Shown in pieces: positions 9,741 through 38,628 of a stretch of 64,000 nucleotides of DNA. A program made the translations under genes and the position numbers. This DNA is from a virus. Position 1 is the stretch's first letter, and every line of letters starts with the position of its first letter. The notes under the pieces were generated by a model. The model searched no databases, had not been told where the DNA came from, and saw nothing but the letters and a program-made list of their open reading frames with translations. Location of the stretch: the IMG/VR virus record IMGVR_UViG_3300032293_001706, positions 1 through 64,000 of that record, one strand, 5' to 3'.

Positions 9741-9745
9741 ATTAG

Positions 9746-9830
9746 TACTCAGGATGGGACTCGAACCCACACGGACATCACTGTCCAACTGATTTTAAGT
9801 CAGTCTTGGCTACCTTTACAACACCTGAGC
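9746..9830 (-). tRNA. tRNA-Leu(UAA), CCA not encoded
   Basis: Acceptor GCTCAGG/CCTGAGT plus discriminator A, anticodon arm ACTGA-CTTAAAA-TCAGT, long variable arm, T loop GGTTCGAGTCC. Confidence 0.9.
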
Positions 9831-14954: not shown

Positions 14955-14982
14955 AAAAAGGGGTCAATTTGACCCCTTTTTT
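14955..14982. terminator. Bidirectional intrinsic terminator
   Basis: AAAAAGGGGTCAA-TT-TGACCCCTTTTTT between convergent genes. Confidence 0.85.
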
Positions 14983-17210
14983 CATTCACCCTTTTTTCTT
15001 CTTGTCTTTTTAGGCGGTGTTACGATTTCTTCAAAGGTAACTTTGTCATCCATATAGTTTAACATATATGGTTTATCAGTAACAATATTATTCCTCAAGA
15101 TTTCATCAGAAATAAAGTCTTCGATTTGAGATTGGATTGCTCTTTTGATTGGTCTAGCTCCAAATTTCTCATCATAACCAATATGTGATATATGTGAAAT
15201 CAAAGATTCTGAAACTTCAAAGAAATATTTCATACTTTCCAAACGCTTACACAATTTGTTAAGTTCAATTTTAACAATCTGTGAAATTTCATTTTCTTTC
15301 AGAGGATTAAAATGGATGATGTCATCAACACGATTGATAAATTCGGGAGGGAAGAACTTTTTAAGTTCATCTTCAACCACCATCTTTTTCATTTCAATCT
15401 CTTTTTGGATTCTTGTTTCTGTTCCAAAACCAACACCTGTTCCAAAATCTTGGATTTTTCTTGCTCCAAGGTTTGATGTCATAATAATAAGGGTATTTTT
15501 GAAATTGATTTTTCTACCCAAACTATCTGTTAGATATCCCTCATCCAATGTTTGAAGAAGTAGAGTAAAAATGTCCTTGTGAGCCTTTTCTATTTCATCA
15601 AATAGAATTACAGAATAAGGTTTATTTTTAACTTGTTCGGTGAGTTGACCTCCTTCATTATAACCGACGTAGCCAGGGGGTGAACCAATCAAACGGGACA
15701 TTGCAAATTTTTCTTGGTATTCAGACATATCAACCCTAATCAATGCGTCTGAATCACCAAAGATTTCTTTCGCAAGTTGTTTTGTGATGTGTGTCTTACC
15801 AATTCCTGTTGGACCTAGGAAGATGAAGGAACCAATTGGTTTATTAGGTTCTTTAATTCCAACCCTATTCCTTCTAATCGCTTTTGCAATTTTTGAAACC
15901 GCTTCTTCTTGACCAATAACAGTAGTTTTTAAACTCTGTTCTAAATTTAATAAAGATTCGGATTCACTTTGAGATAATTTACTTACAGGGATTTTGGTCA
16001 TTGATGCAACCACTTCATATACCATTTCTTCGGTTACTTCTTTTTTGTCCACATTCCTACTTTGTTCAAACTTTTGTTTTTCTTCCTCAAGTTTCAACAA
16101 TAATTTTCTCTCCCTATCTCTCAACTCAGCAGCTTCTTCAAACCTCTGATTTCTAACAACTTCCAACTTTAACTCTTTAAGTTTGGTGGCTTCCTCTTTA
16201 AGCTGTTCGATAATTTCAGGAATTTTGGTATTAATCTGACTTCTTGCTCCGACTTCATCCATAATGTCGATAGCTTTATCGGGGAATTCTCTATCTGTAA
16301 TGTACCTATCTGCCAAATAAACACAAGACTTTAATGCCGCATCTGTAAAAAATACCTTATGATATTTTTCATAATTAATCTTGGCTCTTTCCAAAATCTT
16401 TAATGTGTCGGTAATTGATGTTGGCTCAACAATAACTTTCTGAAACCTTCTTTCTAATGCGCCATCTTTTTCAATATGTTCCCGATATTCGTCCAAGGTG
16501 GTGGCTCCAATACATTGTAGTTCTCCGCGAGCAAGGGCGGGTTTAAATATATTGGAAGCGTCCAGTGAGCCTGAAGAATTTCCCGCCCCGATAATAGTAT
16601 GAATTTCATCAATGAATATAATTACATCATGATTGTCACGTAATTCATCAATAATCACTTTCATTCTTTCTTCAAATTGACCTCTATATTTTGTTCCAGC
16701 AACAATTGAAGTCATATCCAAACTAACGATTCGTTTATCTAATAAATTTACAGGACAATCACCTTCATATATTTTCATCGCTAAACCCTCAACAATTGCC
16801 GTTTTTCCGCAATTGTGAGAAATAATACCATTTGACACATATTTTCTCTCTGAATCAAGTACCTCCAAATCATATGTATCATGAACACCGATTTCTTCCC
16901 ACTCTATTACTTCAGCTAACTCATTGTTTTCACACCAAACTAGTTCACCCTCCGTAATATTACCCAAGGCAACCCAATAGGAATTGTTTTCAAATTGAAC
17001 GGTTGGATTAATGGATGTCTCTGGTACTTCAACAAAATGTGTGTCAGAACCTGATAACTCCAATCCATTAGATAGTTTAATTCTTATGCAATTTTTATCC
17101 TTTTTTTGGTATAAATTACCTATTAACTTAAAACCTGAAGGCGTTTTTATTTTATAGGTTCCACCATCTTTTTCGACTAATTCAAAGAAGTCTTTTATTG
17201 TTATTTTCAT
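14982..17210 (-). CDS. clpC: ClpC-type AAA+ ATPase, C-terminal part, preceded by the intein C-fragment
   Basis: After a 133-aa intein fragment: [29 protein letters not shown]-like middle domain, second Walker [16 protein letters not shown], ClpP-docking GVGF loop, FGARP. Confidence 0.92.
16812..17210 (-). mobile_element. Split intein C-fragment (133 aa, no endonuclease)
   Basis: Block B-like SGSDTH, block F TYDLEV, block [11 protein letters not shown] followed by +1 Cys. Confidence 0.88.
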
Positions 17211-17217
17211 TTTTTTA

Positions 17218-17520
17218 TTACATTATTTCTATTTTATGTGAATCGTCGTTAGAAATTTTTTCAATTTCAATTATAGTATCACCTAACACACATCCAGGCT
17301 CACCTACCAATATAGGGTTATTCTTCTTTCTTCTTGAAATAATCTGTGCCAATCTTGTGATTTCAGAATCTCTTCCAACCACAGGGTCCAACTTTCCTTC
17401 TTTAGCCAACTTAATAAGGTCACGTGAAAAATTATCCAATACTGGTGTATTTGATTTTGTTTCACCTCTTGTAGGTTTTTTCTCGTTGTTTTTTTCGTTA
17501 CGGTCTTCTGCTTCTATCAT
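17218..17520 (-). CDS. clpC: ClpC-type ATPase N-terminal fragment (76 aa) fused to a 24-aa intein N-fragment
   Basis: LDNFSRDL...[13 protein letters not shown]...[14 protein letters not shown], then [12 protein letters not shown]...M and stop. Confidence 0.9.
17221..17292 (-). mobile_element. Split intein N-fragment (24 aa)
   Basis: CVLGDTII matches intein block A (C-x-x-G-D-T-x-I) and begins inside Walker A. Confidence 0.85.
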
Positions 17521-18454: not shown

Positions 18455-20611
18455 GTGATTGAACAGGAAAAACTTGATTTGGTATTTGAATTATTAGATG
18501 ATTTTACATCTGATGGGAAACTATATTATGATGATGAATCGGAATCCATATGGATGATAAATCCAGATACAAAAGAATGGATATTTGAATTAACAAAAAC
18601 AGGTCGTTTATGGTATTATAATCCGATTTTTAGTGAAATTTTTAAATACGTTTTTATAGAATATCCTGATTTTAAACCGTATATAACAAAGTGGGTTGAA
18701 AGAATCCTTCAAAAAGAGGTTAAATACACCGATGTGGATTCTCATCAGTTGCGCAATCGAGTTGAAAGAATCCTTCAAAAAGAGGTTAAATACACCGATG
18801 ACGTTTCCGTAACGCACCACGGAAAAGTTGAAAGAATCCTTCGACGAGATAATAATTCGGATTCAGAAGAAAACATCAATGAAAGTGAAGAACCGTCATC
18901 AGTTGATGAGGATTTGGTATTTGAGTTATTAGATGATTTTACATCTGGCGGAAAGTTATATTATGAAGATGAAACGGAAACCATATGGATGATAAATCCA
19001 GATACAAAAGAATGGATATTTGAATTCGAAAAATCAGGAGATTTATGGTATCATTATAAAGTTTTTGAAAGTATTTTTAAATACGTTTTGATGAAACATA
19101 CTGAATTTTTTCCATATATAACAAAGTGGGTTGAAAGAATCCTTCAAAAGGATATTGAAGATATCGGTTTCGTTTCCCAAATGCGCCACCAGAAAGTTGA
19201 AAGAATCCTTCAATCAGGAACCGAATTAAATTCAGAAGAAAACATTAATGAAAGCGAAGAACCATCATCAGTTGATGAAGATTTGATATTCGAATTATTG
19301 GATGACTTTACATCTGATGGAAAGTTATATTATGATGATGAATATGACTCCATATGGATGATAAATCCAGATACAAAACAATGGATATTTGAATTCAAAA
19401 AATCAGGAAATTTATGGTATTATTATCCAGTTTTCGTTAAAATTTTTAAATACGTATCGATGGAATACCCTGATTTTAACCCGTATATAACAAAGTGGGT
19501 TGAAAGAATCCTTCAAAAGGAGGTTAAAGACACCCAAAGCCTGCGCATTCCTGTGATTGGCATTGTTGAAAGAATCCTTCAAAAGGAGGTTAAAGACACC
19601 TATCGATTTCGATTCCGAAATGAAGCGTATGTTGAAAGAATCCTTCAAAAGGAGGTTAAAGACACCAAAACGCGTAATGGAATACACCGAAGTACAGTTG
19701 AAAGAATCCTTCAAAAGGAGGTTAAAGACACCACAGAGCTGGAAGACCTTTCCATCAAATACGTTGAAAGAATCCTTCAATCAGGAACCGAATTAAATTC
19801 AGAAGAAAACATTAATGAAAGTGAGAAAATGAAAAAAACAAATTTAATGGGTACAATACTAAAAAGTTTTGAGATTAGAGATTCTTTACCTTCAGAAATT
19901 TGGTACAACCCTGATGGAAAATCCGTTAAAGATAGTAATGCTGGTGATTTAAAATTAAAACCTGAAATTAGACAACGTTTACTTGAAATTGCCGAGTTAT
20001 TTGTTGATTATATAAAATTGGACATGTTTGTCAATGATATTGTTATTACAGGTTCCTTACTTAATTATAATTGGTCCGACTATTCAGATTTTGATTTACA
20101 CGTTATAACATCATTAAGTAATTATCAAGAAAATGAAGAAATTTATAAAGAATTTTTTAAATTAAAGAAAAACTCATTTAATTTAAAACACGACATAACT
20201 GTGAAAGGGTATGATGTTGAAGTTTATGTTGAAGATAGTGATAATGAAAGATTTTCTTCAGGGGTTTATTCAATAATAAATGATAAATGGGTGAATGTTC
20301 CGAAAAAAGAAAAAGCAACGATAGATTTAAACAAAATTAAAGAAAAAACAAATCAATGGATGGAATTAATTGATAATTTAATTGATACCGCAAACGATGA
20401 AGATATCTATGTTGTAAAATCTTTATTTGACAAATATGGTGAAAAATTAAAAAATTTTAGGACTGCAGGACTAAAAAAAGGTGGAGAATATTCATATGAA
20501 AACTTGGTTTTCAAGGTTTTAAGAAGGAATGGTTATTTAGATAAATTCAGAAATGCTGCTGATAAAATCATAGATAAACAATTAACCTTAAAAGAAAGTG
20601 AAATATTTTAA
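18455..20611 (+). CDS. Fusion of three copies of a ~75-aa module, each carrying an interspaced repeat array, to a Pol-beta-like nucleotidyltransferase
   Basis: Three copies of FELLDDFTSxGKLYY...KWVERILQK; C-terminal part from about 19829 has ITGSLLNYNWSDYSDFDLH and YDVEVYVED. Confidence 0.8.
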   Translation: MIEQEKLDLVFELLDDFTSDGKLYYDDESESIWMINPDTKEWIFELTKTGRLWYYNPIFSEIFKYVFIEYPDFKPYITKWVERILQKEVKYTDVDSHQLRNRVERILQKEVKYTDDVSVTHHGKVERILRRDNNSDSEENINESEEPSSVDEDLVFELLDDFTSGGKLYYEDETETIWMINPDTKEWIFEFEKSGDLWYHYKVFESIFKYVLMKHTEFFPYITKWVERILQKDIEDIGFVSQMRHQKVERILQSGTELNSEENINESEEPSSVDEDLIFELLDDFTSDGKLYYDDEYDSIWMINPDTKQWIFEFKKSGNLWYYYPVFVKIFKYVSMEYPDFNPYITKWVERILQKEVKDTQSLRIPVIGIVERILQKEVKDTYRFRFRNEAYVERILQKEVKDTKTRNGIHRSTVERILQKEVKDTTELEDLSIKYVERILQSGTELNSEENINESEKMKKTNLMGTILKSFEIRDSLPSEIWYNPDGKSVKDSNAGDLKLKPEIRQRLLEIAELFVDYIKLDMFVNDIVITGSLLNYNWSDYSDFDLHVITSLSNYQENEEIYKEFFKLKKNSFNLKHDITVKGYDVEVYVEDSDNERFSSGVYSIINDKWVNVPKKEKATIDLNKIKEKTNQWMELIDNLIDTANDEDIYVVKSLFDKYGEKLKNFRTAGLKKGGEYSYENLVFKVLRRNGYLDKFRNAADKIIDKQLTLKESEIF
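18695..18842. CRISPR. CRISPR-like array A (2 full repeats, 2 spacers, partial repeat), in frame inside a CDS
   Basis: Repeat GTTGAAAGAATCCTTCAAAAAGAGGTTAAATACACC; 30-bp spacers at 18731-18760 and 18797-18826. Confidence 0.5.
19130..19213. CRISPR. CRISPR-like array B (degenerate repeat, 1 spacer, partial repeat)
   Basis: Repeat GTTGAAAGAATCCTTCAAAAGGATATTGAAGATATC; 30-bp spacer at 19166-19195. Confidence 0.4.
19499..19780. CRISPR. CRISPR-like array C (4 identical 36-bp repeats, 4 distinct 30-bp spacers, partial repeat)
   Basis: GTTGAAAGAATCCTTCAAAAGGAGGTTAAAGACACC at 19499, 19565, 19631 and 19697; 18-bp partial at 19763. Confidence 0.6.
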
Positions 20612-27975: not shown

Positions 27976-30972
27976 ATGGCAGATAATTATACAATATGGC
28001 AAAGACTTACAAGGGTTTTTGGTCCTGATTCAACATTAGGTCAACAACCTCCTGTATATAAGTTTGATAAAAAAGAACTTCTTAAAACAACTGACAAACA
28101 AGAATATGAAAAAGAGAAGTTACAAGCACAACAAAGTTACTATTTAGGTCAACAGTGGGCAAAGATTGAAAACAATTTATATACCCAAGCAATATATTAT
28201 GAACCAACAAGATTAGCGTCATATTATGATTACGAATCGATGGAGTTTTCGATTGCTGGGGATACAAAAATTGCAACACCTGATGGTTTTATAACAATAA
28301 AAGAGTTGGCGGATAAGGGTAGAGATTATGAATTTGTAACTTACGCTTATGACCACAACTTAAATAAAGTGGTTCCCGCAAAAGCAAGAAACGCCCACTA
28401 TACAAGAGATGAGATGACTTATAAAATAACATTTGACGATGGTAGTCATATTATTGCGACATATGGTCATAGATTTTTGAAACGTGATGGTGTGTTTTGT
28501 GAAGTTGAAAATTTGAAACCCGGAGATTCAATGATGCCATTTTATAGAAAATCATTCTATGCAAATGAAAAGTATAATTGGGTTTATACTTGTAATAAAA
28601 ATGAAGGTCATAATGGATGGATTAGTGAACATAATTTAATAGCTGAGTGGTTCTATGATAAGAAAGTATTAGAAGATGAAGAAGTTCATCATATAGACTT
28701 TAATGGTAAAAATAACTTACCTGAAAATTTACAAATAATGAAAATTTCAAAACATAGAGCATATCATGCTAGATTAAACAATGAAAAACTTTGGTCGAAT
28801 CCTGAATATAGACAAAAAATGTCTGAAACGGCAAGACGTAAAGGTAAGTTAAAATGGGACGGAAAAAGAAAAGGTCAAAATAATCCTTCATATATTAAAT
28901 TGTCATTTAACTTATTAGTTAATACCGCAAAAGAATATAGGACTTTAGAAAAAACGTCAAAAGTTTTAGGGGTATCAATCAAAAAAATACAAAATGAATT
29001 AAGATTTAATGGGTTCAAATGTTGGGATGACTTTTTAAAATTTTATAATCTTAAAAAATATCATAAAAATACTGAAAATTATGAATTATTAGATTTTAAA
29101 CTAATACCTTGGGACTTACTTATTGATACCGCAAAGAAGGGAAAAACAATGCAAAATGTTTGTGATACTTTAGGAATTACTTTTGGTAAATTAAGGTCGA
29201 CAATAAGACAAGGAGGGTATAGAAATTGGACAACATTTATGGATGCGTATGGTTTAGAATATGGTAAAGTTGGTAGAAAAAAACCAGTTGAATCTAATTT
29301 ATTAAATCATAAAATAGTATCTATTGAACCTTATGGCGTTGTACCTGTTTATGATTTAACAGTTCCTGGATACAAAAATTTTGCAACCGATACCATCTTT
29401 TCACACAATACTCCTGAAATATCAACTGCTTTAGATATTTACGCTGAAGAATCTACAACAACAAATGAAGATGGATACATATTACAAATATATTCAGAGT
29501 CTTCACGTATAAAAGGAGTTTTGGCTGATTTATTTAATAATAGGTTAGATATTAATACTAACCTACCAATGTGGACTAGAAACACCTGTAAATATGGTGA
29601 CAATTTTGTATACTTAAAACTTGACCCTGAAAAAGGAATTGTAGGTTGTCAACAACTACCAAATATTGAAATTGAGCGTTTGGAAAGGGGTATGAAGATA
29701 AAACCTTCACATAGTACATCTGAAGATGCAAAATCCTTAAAATTTGTATGGAAAGTTAAGGATATGGAGTTTAATACTTGGGAAATTGCCCACTTTAGAT
29801 TATTGGGTGATGACAGAAAACTTCCGTATGGAACAAGTATGTTGGAAAAAGCAAGAAGAACTTGGAAACAACTATTACTTTCTGAAGATGCAATGTTAAT
29901 TTATAGAACATCAAGAGCACCTGAAAGAAGAGTATTTAAAATATTTGTTGGAAATATGGATGATAAAGATGTTGAACCATATATCCAAAGAATTGCAAAT
30001 AAATTCAAACGTGACCAAGTTGTTGACCCAAAAAGTGGTAATGTTGATTTACGTATGAATCAAATGGCTGTTGACCAAGATTTCTTTATTCCTGTCCGTG
30101 ATGCCGCACAAACAAGTCCAATCGAAACATTACAGGGAGCACAAAATCTGTCTGAAATTGCCGATATCGAATACATTCAAAAGAAATTACTAACAGCATT
30201 ACGTGTTCCAAAAGCGTTTTTAGGTTTTGAAGAAGTTGTTGGTGATGGTAAAAACTTGGCATTACAAGACATTCGTTTTGCAAGAACAATCAATAGAATC
30301 CAAAAATCAATGATTCAAGAGTTAAATAAGATTGCAATTATTCACTTGTTCATATTAGGGTTTGAGGATGAATTAACAAACTTTACATTGGGTCTAACAA
30401 ATCCATCAACACAGGCAGATTTGTTAAAAATTGACACTTGGAAAGAAAAAATCACTTTATATAAAGACGCAGTATCCGACCCAGGTCTTGGAATACAACC
30501 AGTTTCCGCAACTTGGGCAAAGAAACATATTCTTGGATTTTCTGATGAAGAAATTAAGTTGGATATTCAACAACAAAGAATTGAAAGAGCGGTAGGCGCC
30601 GAACTTCAAAAAACCGCTGAGGTTATTATTCATACAGGCTTGTTTGATAATATTGATAAGTTATATGGTAAAAAACCTGGTGAAGCGGCTGGAGAAGCAC
30701 CTCCGACAGGTGGTGAACCATCAGATATGGGTGGTGGACCTCCCGATATTGGTGGTGGTGGACCTCCCGATATTGGTGGTCCTGAAGGAATGGAAATGCC
30801 AAGCGCTCCAACAGGAGGACCTGAATTGGCACCTGAATCAAAACTTGAAAAAGATATGAATTTAATTCTTGAAGATAATATGATAACAGGTGTTGATGAG
30901 ATTGATTTATCAAAAGGAAGGAAATCTTTATTGGAGATTGAAAATAAATTAGATGATTTATTAAATAAATAA
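27976..30972 (+). CDS. Portal protein (T4 gp20-like) with intein
   Basis: DYESME...PEISTALDIY, YRTSRAPERRVFKIFVGN, DFFIPVR, IETLQGAQNL, LRVPKAFL. Confidence 0.93.
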   Translation: MADNYTIWQRLTRVFGPDSTLGQQPPVYKFDKKELLKTTDKQEYEKEKLQAQQSYYLGQQWAKIENNLYTQAIYYEPTRLASYYDYESMEFSIAGDTKIATPDGFITIKELADKGRDYEFVTYAYDHNLNKVVPAKARNAHYTRDEMTYKITFDDGSHIIATYGHRFLKRDGVFCEVENLKPGDSMMPFYRKSFYANEKYNWVYTCNKNEGHNGWISEHNLIAEWFYDKKVLEDEEVHHIDFNGKNNLPENLQIMKISKHRAYHARLNNEKLWSNPEYRQKMSETARRKGKLKWDGKRKGQNNPSYIKLSFNLLVNTAKEYRTLEKTSKVLGVSIKKIQNELRFNGFKCWDDFLKFYNLKKYHKNTENYELLDFKLIPWDLLIDTAKKGKTMQNVCDTLGITFGKLRSTIRQGGYRNWTTFMDAYGLEYGKVGRKKPVESNLLNHKIVSIEPYGVVPVYDLTVPGYKNFATDTIFSHNTPEISTALDIYAEESTTTNEDGYILQIYSESSRIKGVLADLFNNRLDINTNLPMWTRNTCKYGDNFVYLKLDPEKGIVGCQQLPNIEIERLERGMKIKPSHSTSEDAKSLKFVWKVKDMEFNTWEIAHFRLLGDDRKLPYGTSMLEKARRTWKQLLLSEDAMLIYRTSRAPERRVFKIFVGNMDDKDVEPYIQRIANKFKRDQVVDPKSGNVDLRMNQMAVDQDFFIPVRDAAQTSPIETLQGAQNLSEIADIEYIQKKLLTALRVPKAFLGFEEVVGDGKNLALQDIRFARTINRIQKSMIQELNKIAIIHLFILGFEDELTNFTLGLTNPSTQADLLKIDTWKEKITLYKDAVSDPGLGIQPVSATWAKKHILGFSDEEIKLDIQQQRIERAVGAELQKTAEVIIHTGLFDNIDKLYGKKPGEAAGEAPPTGGEPSDMGGGPPDIGGGGPPDIGGPEGMEMPSAPTGGPELAPESKLEKDMNLILEDNMITGVDEIDLSKGRKSLLEIENKLDDLLNK
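28249..29409 (+). mobile_element. 387-aa intein with HNH endonuclease in the portal gene
   Basis: Starts SIAGDTKI, block B ATYGH, HNH core EVHHIDFNGKNNLPENL, ends VYDLTV...FSHN with +1 Thr. Confidence 0.88.
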
Positions 30973-36983: not shown

Positions 36984-37013
36984 AAAAAGGGACGATTTAT
37001 TCGTCCCTTTTTT
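36984..37013. terminator. Bidirectional intrinsic terminator after the capsid gene
   Basis: AAAAAGGGACGA-TTTAT-TCGTCCCTTTTTT. Confidence 0.88.
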
Positions 37014-38628
37014 ATTTTAAAACCATTTCATATTTTAAATTCCCTGTATCCCATATTTTATCATAACCCAATTCAATCATGATTTGATTTTCGGTTTTAT
37101 TTGAATCGTGTCCCATTTTAACTAAAACATCTTTTCTAAAATTAAATCGATAATATCTATGTATATAGTTTTTTGTGTAATAATAATTTGGTTTTGTTAT
37201 ACCAATAAAATTAAAACCCACTTTACCATAAAAACAATACTCATCAGACGGGGACCAATTTCTGTCGGCATATGTAATAATTCTATTGGGTTTATGTTCT
37301 TTAATAAAATGGTTCAATAATTTGGTGAACCCTCCAATAACATTTAAACTACAATATCTGTATATTTCATAATCCTTTAGTTTTTCATTTTTATTACCTA
37401 ATGGTCTTCTCAAATTACCAAAAGTTAACAATGATACTATTTTATCATTGTACTTTAACGCATAAAAAATAGAAGACTTGTCATTCCCTTGTAGATGATT
37501 ATCGTCTAAAAATTTTTTCTTTTCAATTTTACTTATTTGTTCAATTGTACATTTCCTTGCGTATATTTTTTCATTTTTTATATTAGTTAAGTTTTTGAGT
37601 CGCTCTTTTATTATTTCTTTTTTGGATTCCCATTCATCGGAAAATATGTGAATAAGTCTAATTTTGTTATCTAAACATTTTATTGTTTTATCTATATGAT
37701 ATTTCTTAGTTTTTCCTTGTTTTTCAGAATGCCAATAAAGACCATTAAATTCTATTCCTATATTAAAATCAGGTAAAAAAATGTCTAATTCAGTACCATT
37801 TAAAATTTTTTTAGTATTTGTTTCATATTTAATACCCAACGTATCTAAAAAAGAACATATTTCAATTTCAGATTTACTTCTATACGTTATATTGTTATTC
37901 GAATTAATTAAATTTTGATTAAAGATATTGTTTAATTTTGTGGAAATTATATTATCTCCGTACAAAAGTTTGTATTTATCAACTGTTATATCGTGTAATT
38001 TTAAATAAGTATTCGATAAAATTTTTAATTTTTCATCACATATATTACAAATTATATAGTTTTCTTTATCATTAAATAATTCATTACGTTCCTCAAATTG
38101 TTTAAAAGTGTTAAAGTAATTAATATATTGTGGGTACTGTTCAATAAAATCGGATACTGATACATGTTCCTTTTCAATATGTTTTGTAAACGACCCACTC
38201 TTATTTTTTAAATCAGTTGTTTCCCAATTACATATCGGACAAATTAATTGAGGTAATTCAATAACTTCTATTTTATTAAAGAATTCATTATGAAAATGAA
38301 CTCCATGTTCTTTAAAAAACATTCTACGTTTAAAAGAGGACGGGATGTCAACGTCAGGATAACATTCTTTAATGTGGGTAGTTATTGAACCACTTTTATT
38401 TTCATAATCGTTGAACTTTTTAGAACACTTTTTACATTCTAAAATGTGTGGTGTTATTATAATATTTTTATTGTTCGTGTATTTTACTTTACCACCGACT
38501 TTTTTGATAGGTATATTATTATTTTTTAGTATGGTTTTTAATTTTAATTTACCTATTTTATATTCTTTACATATCTTATCAAGAGATGAATCTGCTTCTA
38601 AATATTTTTTAATTATTTCATGTTCCAT
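37012..38628 (-). mobile_element. Putative free-standing homing endonuclease (Zn fingers plus Vsr/EDxHD-like nuclease core)
   Basis: CKKC...HIKECY, CPIC...HIEKEH, CNIC; ELDIFLPDFNIGIEFNGLYWHS; IYDTG-like tail KIWDTGNLKY. Confidence 0.6.

Follow-up and report, generated by a model that had tools for sequence, protein, structure and literature searches.

A naturally and atypically split intein, very probably functional, in the first P-loop of a phage ClpC-like ATPase

Introduction

Can a phage make a working Clp ATPase from a gene that is cut in two inside its first P-loop? The question is raised by a stretch of viral DNA of 64,000 nucleotides (nt), positions 1 to 64,000 of the IMG/VR record IMGVR_UViG_3300032293_001706, which we call the window. 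The record is a 190.5-kb virus contig with an estimated completeness of 63%, and it carries T4-type portal, capsid and terminase genes. On the minus strand of the window, one gene stops 24 codons after the first half of a Walker A motif (GEPG). The next gene supplies the second half (CGKT), preceded by 133 residues of other sequence.

A model that saw only the letters of the window and its open reading frames (ORFs) proposed that this extra sequence is a naturally and atypically split intein within a ClpC ATPase (the original prediction). The N-terminal fragment (IntN) would have 24 amino acids (aa) and the C-terminal fragment (IntC) 133 aa. We find a naturally, atypically split intein in the Walker A motif of the first AAA+ module (D1), as proposed. 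Sequence motifs, the predicted HINT fold of a relative, purifying selection, alleles without the intein and a conserved split all argue for it. It is very probably a functional class-1 intein, seated in the first P-loop of a ClpC-type unfoldase of a T4-like phage.

Gene layout

Positions are those of the whole window. The split-gene pair lies on the minus strand and comprises the following features.

17218..17520 (with stop), minus strand: gene 1, the N-precursor of 100 aa, including a 76-aa N-extein and the 24-aa IntN (ORF list, NCBIfam, homologous clusters)
17293..17520, minus strand: N-extein, which opens the D1 AAA+ module and runs through the first Walker A half (…ILVGEPG) (sequence, NCBIfam)
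17221..17292, minus strand: IntN, 24 aa, block A with Cys1, net charge -4 (sequence)
17211..17220, minus strand: the break, with the stop TAA at 17218-17220, then a 7-nt spacer at 17211-17217 and a change of frame to gene 2
14982..17210, minus strand: gene 2, the C-precursor of 742 aa, in another frame than gene 1 (ORF list)
16812..17210, minus strand: IntC, 133 aa, with block B GSDTH (SxxH), block F TYDLEV and block G NGIISHN
16809..16811, minus strand: +1 Cys of the C-extein (CGKT), the putative nucleophile for trans-thioesterification (Cys in relatives and in uncut alleles)
14982..16808, minus strand: rest of the C-extein, with D1 from GKT, AAA lid, UVR-like middle motif, second AAA+ module (D2), D2-small and stop (Pfam)

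IntN ends IEIM before TAA TAA, and the second in-frame TAA (17215-17217) opens the spacer. Gene 2 starts MKITIKDFF…, and its intein part closes …NGIISHN before CGKT. Re-reading the sequence returned exactly the predicted coordinates and letters of both halves, as well as the 7-nt gap, the two stops and the frame change. No ORF lies between the two halves in the window, where the spacer is 7 nt. By alignment, the counterpart of the N-extein in uncut phage homologues is residues 1-77.

Conservation of the break

A continuous frame across 17211-17220 would speak against a split. Three other studies supplied Logan contigs (X2, X3, X4) that span these positions with no indel and no substitution there, and none of them shows such a frame.

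The same layout recurs widely. Searching with gene 1 found ~636 homologous protein clusters of ~92-113 aa (about 96 aa). A GEPG-type motif is present in 119 of the 120 best of these clusters, and the tail that follows it is exactly 24 aa long in 115 of the 119. Decay of the N-terminal gene among relatives, which would also count against the prediction, was not seen: start and stop codons are kept in the ~636 clusters. The search with IntC found 116 clusters, and the length of IntC is 133 aa in 109 of 113. The split layout is common in metagenomes, not rare. Recurrence of the 24/133 architecture in hundreds of diverged relatives is far beyond chance or sequencing error.

We compared 11 intein-bearing loci, the window and ten relatives. 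Their spacers, measured from the stop of the N-gene to the ATG of the C-gene, are 6, 7 (window), 11, 24, 29, 121, 360, 1189, 1208, 1208 and 1213 nt, and the reading-frame relation of the halves varies. IntN has 24 aa in all 11 loci except L011 (26 aa) and L015 (not cleanly delimited), and IntC has 133 aa in all except the divergent L015. Because the stop position recurs while spacers and frames vary, neither a frameshift artefact nor a recoding signal can account for the pattern. Two ORFs with their own stop and start, a conserved break, and a short IntN with a long IntC are the features of a split intein.

Intein motifs, fold and selection

The block A nucleophile Cys1 is present in the window and in all 116 relatives, among which C1, I8, S14 and H19 of IntN are invariant. 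Block B of IntC reads GSDTH in the window. Its S55 and H58, together with D114-V117 of block F and S131-N133 (SHN) of block G, are invariant in the 58 relatives that were aligned. At +1, all 113 close relatives have Cys, and an internal Cys41 of IntC is nearly invariant.

Profile hidden Markov models of inteins bear out the prediction in part. TIGR01443 (intein_Cterm) matches gene 2 above its cut-off (18.6 bits against 15.6), but Pfam Intein_splicing reaches just 18.6 bits, under its threshold of 35.8. Among PDB sequences, IntC matches the intein VidaL best (6vgv, E 7e-4), and the DnaX, gp41-1 and RadA inteins come next.

The sequence that we folded is that of relative L010, whose halves lie in one frame and are separated by a TAA and two codons; the TAA was read as Gln. 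The AlphaFold2 (AF2) model of this read-through has a predicted local distance difference test score (pLDDT) of 79.4 and a predicted template modelling score (pTM) of 0.73. All its top Foldseek matches are inteins. The best is again VidaL 6vgv (E 6e-11, template modelling score 0.81, root-mean-square deviation (rmsd) 3.1 Å), and Cat (6dsl) comes no higher than 39th. IntN makes up β1 and β2 of the model, and the break falls in a low-confidence loop before a strand and helix α1. The HINT fold is thus predicted for L010, not for the window's own halves. MAFFT twice aligned the start of IntC under the tail of IntN, as a local duplication might produce. We reject a duplication for now, since the L010 model sets strand against helix there.

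Selection was estimated from pairwise Nei-Gojobori counts over ten loci. Mean values of non-synonymous over synonymous differences per site (pN/pS) are 0.17/0.66 for IntN, 0.21/0.65 for IntC and 0.135/0.67 for the adjoining extein. In all three, synonymous sites are saturated and non-synonymous change is held back. By these counts both intein halves and the exteins are under purifying selection, which points towards an intein that is still needed. IntN has a charge of -4, and the first 45 aa of IntC have a mean charge of +5.6 among the relatives. Such opposite charges are as expected for halves that would attract each other.

Some observations weigh against a functional intein. Ser replaces the usual Thr in the TxxH of block B. 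The fold evidence comes from a relative whose intein is ~55-69% identical to that of the window, and the model has a pLDDT of only ~54 in its IntN region 20-30, too low to assign a role to the invariant Ser14 and His19. Upstream of gene 1 and gene 2, no Shine-Dalgarno sequence is recognisable. A promoter and terminator scan found promoter-like sites at chance level, which is uninformative either way; the same scan, equally uninformative, found no terminator between the halves.

Uncut and fused alleles

The GEPG/CGKT site is conserved, and 68 of 80 related viral loci are uncut there. These intein-free alleles (L005, L016-L084) read GEPGCGKT in 66 of 68 cases; one has Ser and one has Ala at the Cys position. 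The junction that trans-splicing was predicted to rebuild, GEPGCGKT, is therefore a sequence that uncut alleles carry naturally. The more distant 635-kb huge phage LR745206 has GEPGVGKS, and cellular Clp proteins have Val at that position of the P-loop. Gain and loss of the intein may have left the Cys of the uncut alleles behind as a trace. So unusual a P-loop residue would fit an intein that repeatedly enters and leaves the alleles of a population.

Other gene arrangements occur among the relatives. In P0220 (829 aa; locus L089 1501-3990, junction near 1750-1790) the gene is contiguous. IntN residues 16-24, including the invariant His19, have been lost in an in-frame deletion (…EKISDKICQKIKIKDFF…), along with the stop, the spacer and the ATG. 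P0220 may represent a cis-intein formed by re-fusion, or else an allele that is dead.

Some relatives encode the ATPase in three pieces (P0141, P0144, P0226 and others, ~503-505 aa; loci L012 and L014). Their middle piece has the C-terminal sequence …FLGSTGVGK/CICGDTEIIVRNK…, in which a second short-IntN split intein interrupts the Walker A motif of D2. The D2 loop of the window is uncut, unlike that of the three-piece relatives.

Endonuclease between the halves

The original prediction stated that no endonuclease gene lies between the halves. This holds for the window but not for the family, since at the very point of the split relatives keep a Vsr-like endonuclease gene. In L004, L008, L012 and L015 a homologous ORF of ~390-400 aa occupies the ~1.2-kb spacer, and the 360-nt spacer of L003 holds a frameshifted 85-aa remnant of its C-terminus. 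The ORF family has 3774 representatives at E ≤ 1e-3. No Pfam family was found for the inter-half ORF of the relatives, a profile search against PDB sequences found nothing, and the whole AF2 model (pLDDT 92) had no significant Foldseek match. Its C-terminal domain (residues 293-390) gave clearer results, with Z-scores from VIA structural re-alignment. The best match is the catalytic domain of I-Bth0305I (3r3p; Z 8.7, rmsd 3.4 Å, 87 residues), followed by Vsr (Z 8.3) and a DUF559-like endonuclease (Z 8.1).

A free-standing endonuclease between the halves marks a fractured gene. It is present in L004, L008, L012 and L015, decayed in L003 and missing from the window. Given this series of spacers among the relatives (intact, decayed, deleted), we read the window as the end of the series, a fractured gene without its endonuclease. 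A Vsr/I-Bth0305I-like free-standing homing endonuclease gene would once have stood at the break and would have been deleted in the lineage of the window. What remains in the window would be an immobile but still obligatory split intein.

The intein of the window is 84% identical to that of L003. The proteins of the whole C-gene, intein included, are 67% identical, and in the extein tree these two loci have the longest terminal branches of all. This discordance between intein and extein suggests movement of the intein between alleles, though only as a hint, as the trees are small and weakly supported.

Proposed splicing route

The two genes are adjacent and probably co-transcribed. As read from the ORFs, translation would give the 100-aa N-precursor and the 742-aa C-precursor. 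The acidic 24-residue IntN, as the first β-hairpin, would dock on the basic N-terminal part of the 133-residue IntC and complete the HINT fold. Class-1 chemistry would then run through Cys1, Cys+1 and Asn133. A thioester at Cys1 would be passed to the +1 Cys, and cyclisation of Asn133 would release the intein.

The predicted product is an ATPase of 685 aa (76 + 609 aa) with the Walker A motif GEPGCGKT, matched by the natural uncut alleles. The D1 ATP site would exist only after splicing, and D1 could bind ATP only from then on. Since the P-loop of D2 (GPTGIGKT) is intact in gene 2, we infer dependence on splicing for D1 only.

Alternative explanations

The break might have been kept after loss of the endonuclease because it serves as a post-translational switch. 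Redox state or timing, acting through Cys1, Cys+1 and Cys41, would then set the onset of D1 ATP-site formation and unfolding during infection. We consider this added role quite unlikely.

A dead gene is very unlikely. Here the fragments left by insertion and deletion of the endonuclease would no longer splice, and the gene would be a Clp ATPase pseudogene or would work through D2 only. Such an outcome is conceivable in that the homing endonuclease is gone, leaving no selfish pressure on the element, and gene 2 alone retains an intact D2 module. However, purifying selection acts across lineages on both intein halves and both exteins, the window retains every catalytic residue, and the N-gene has not lost its start and stop in the ~636 clusters.

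The halves might also associate without splicing, as a non-covalent dimerisation module, or read-through or frameshifting might yield the precursor of a cis-intein. The L010 halves, in the same frame and only one stop and two codons apart, and the contiguous 829-aa fusion P0220 would suit such routes. Both are nevertheless highly improbable. Only the chemistry requires Cys1, the block G His-Asn and the +1 Cys, and all of them are invariant. The length and frame of the spacer vary freely, ruling out a conserved recoding signal. A 157-aa domain that stayed in the P-loop would probably keep ATP from binding.

The chance that a contiguous intein or gene was broken by a frameshift error in sequencing or assembly is negligible: the break adjoins an A7 run, and a 1-nt shift in ATAATG could formally join both frames, but two in-frame TAA codons follow IntN, the contigs of three other studies have identical letters, and hundreds of clusters, as well as ten other loci with spacers of 6-1213 nt and differing frames, share this stop position.

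Host protein

The functional split intein that we favour would restore an ATPase for which the name ClpC was only partly apt. The protein is ClpC-like and has two AAA+ modules, but it lacks Clp_N and falls under the NCBIfam equivalog cut-offs. Pfam finds AAA, AAA_lid_9, UVR, AAA_2 and ClpB_D2-small in gene 2. The UVR-type middle motif (PF02151) lies at residues 338-370 and scores 24.5 bits against a cut-off of 21.5. In gene 1, NCBIfam models of ClpB, ClpA and ClpK match residues ~5-84, the segment just upstream of Walker A. No Pfam family matches gene 1, including the Clp_N repeat domain, and only ~20 residues precede the D1 core there. The ClpB model scores 737 against an equivalog cut-off of 1232, and the ClpA model 626 against 993. 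By these profiles the ATPase is ClpC-like, not an equivalog. Gene 2 contains a VGF loop (GVGFG), a candidate for ClpP docking. The 190-kb record, itself only 63% complete, yielded no ClpP gene.

Comparison with known systems

Known short IntN fragments have 15-37 aa (PMC13014065). The closest known structure is VidaL (PDB 6vgv/6vgw), which PMC13014065 describes as atypically split, with a 16-aa IntN and an S1 split after β2. Like VidaL, the intein of the window would be Cys-dependent, its short N-terminal piece would be the first hairpin, and the break precedes helix α1. The two differ in several respects. They share only ~18% identity, and IntN has 24 aa here and 16 aa in VidaL. Residue 2 of IntC aligns with VidaL residue 25, which places the break several residues further on here. 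The IntN of the window has the invariant Ser14 and His19, and the host protein is another one.

The S1-type split region is shared by VidaL and PolB16, whereas AceL-TerL and GOS-TerL are split at the S2 site after α1 (PMC13014065). AceL-TerL, GOS-TerL and the consensus Cat-TerL (Thiel, 2014; Bachmann and Mootz, 2015; reviewed in PMC11766414) have IntN of 25, 37 and 30 aa and IntC of 104-115 aa. Like the intein of the window, the TerL inteins are phage-borne and naturally split, with a short IntN and a long IntC. AceL-TerL also shares Cys1 and Cys+1, and its IntN is almost identical in length (25 aa against 24 aa here). The TerL inteins are split after α1, in a terminase; here the break precedes α1, in a Clp ATPase.

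Fractured phage genes were described by Dassa, London, Stoddard, Schueler-Furman and Pietrokovski (2009; PMC2677866), who found a Vsr-like endonuclease family in half of them. The relatives resemble these genes in that the nuclease domain of their inter-half ORF has the I-Bth0305I/Vsr fold. The window differs from them, with no endonuclease gene and a spacer of 7 nt.

The only intein of a Clp system that we found in the literature is that of the Chlamydomonas eugametos chloroplast ClpP (Wang and Liu, 1997, cited in PMC4760082). It lies in the peptidase, not the ATPase, and is contiguous, chloroplast-encoded and at an unrelated position. In the literature searched, which covers a minority of subscription papers, we found no report of an intein in ClpA, ClpB or ClpC, and an earlier mention is possible.

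Atypically split inteins and fractured phage genes are therefore a known kind of element, and a Clp ATPase as their host seems unpublished. With it, a chaperone/unfoldase joins the P-loop proteins that inteins have colonised. The contribution of the window itself is twofold. Its spacer, 7 nt long and free of the endonuclease, represents the end state, and its genome encodes a second atypically split intein, a paralogue seated in a gene of the SbcC/gp46 type from which the endonuclease has not been lost. The fractured-gene series is unusually complete: uncut, endonuclease intact, decayed and lost, with one in-frame re-fusion. Together with the discordance between intein and host gene, it illustrates how split inteins may originate and become fixed after loss of the selfish nuclease.

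Split inteins with a short IntN (VidaL, AceL-TerL, GOS-TerL and PolB16 are examples) are scarce, and they are prized for an IntN that is accessible to peptide synthesis. The present family offers a 24-residue IntN of the Cys1/Cys+1 type with a minimal native junction, Gly/Cys, and hundreds of natural variants usable for consensus design.

Other features of the phage

The second fractured gene lies at ~161.7-164.5 kb of the record (locus L085: N-gene 466-1071, ORF 1093-2127, C-gene from 2124). An SbcC/gp46-like Walker A motif (NFGGK/…) is cut there by an atypically split intein with a 29-aa IntN and an IntC of ~124 aa ending SHN/S, and the halves hold a 344-aa Vsr-like endonuclease ORF between them. 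This IntC is 32% identical to the ClpC-type IntC (E 2e-11), with the same break point. The ClpC-type split intein is probably orthogonal to this paralogue of the same genome.

The portal (gp20) gene of the window (27976-30972) contains a contiguous intein of ~387 aa at 28249-29409, plus strand. It has Ser1, Thr+1 and an HNH endonuclease insert (…YESMEF/SIAGDT…FSHN/TPEIS…). Pfam matches the gene with Intein_splicing (E 2.8e-15) and Portal_T4 (E 3.6e-74).

Directly after the major capsid gene, at 37012-38628 on the minus strand, lies a 538-aa free-standing homing endonuclease (phrog_3339, E 5e-96). Its nuclease domain has weak similarity to the inter-half ORF of the relatives.

An ORF of 718 aa at 18455-20611, plus strand, contains three long tandem repeats (…LVFELLDDFTSDGKLYYDDE…ITKWVERILQKEVK…) and a run of short VERILQKEVKDT repeats; its C-terminal part resembles a neighbouring gene in L004 (77-814). 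The sole tRNA found in the window is a tRNA-Leu (anticodon TAA) at 9745-9830, minus strand.

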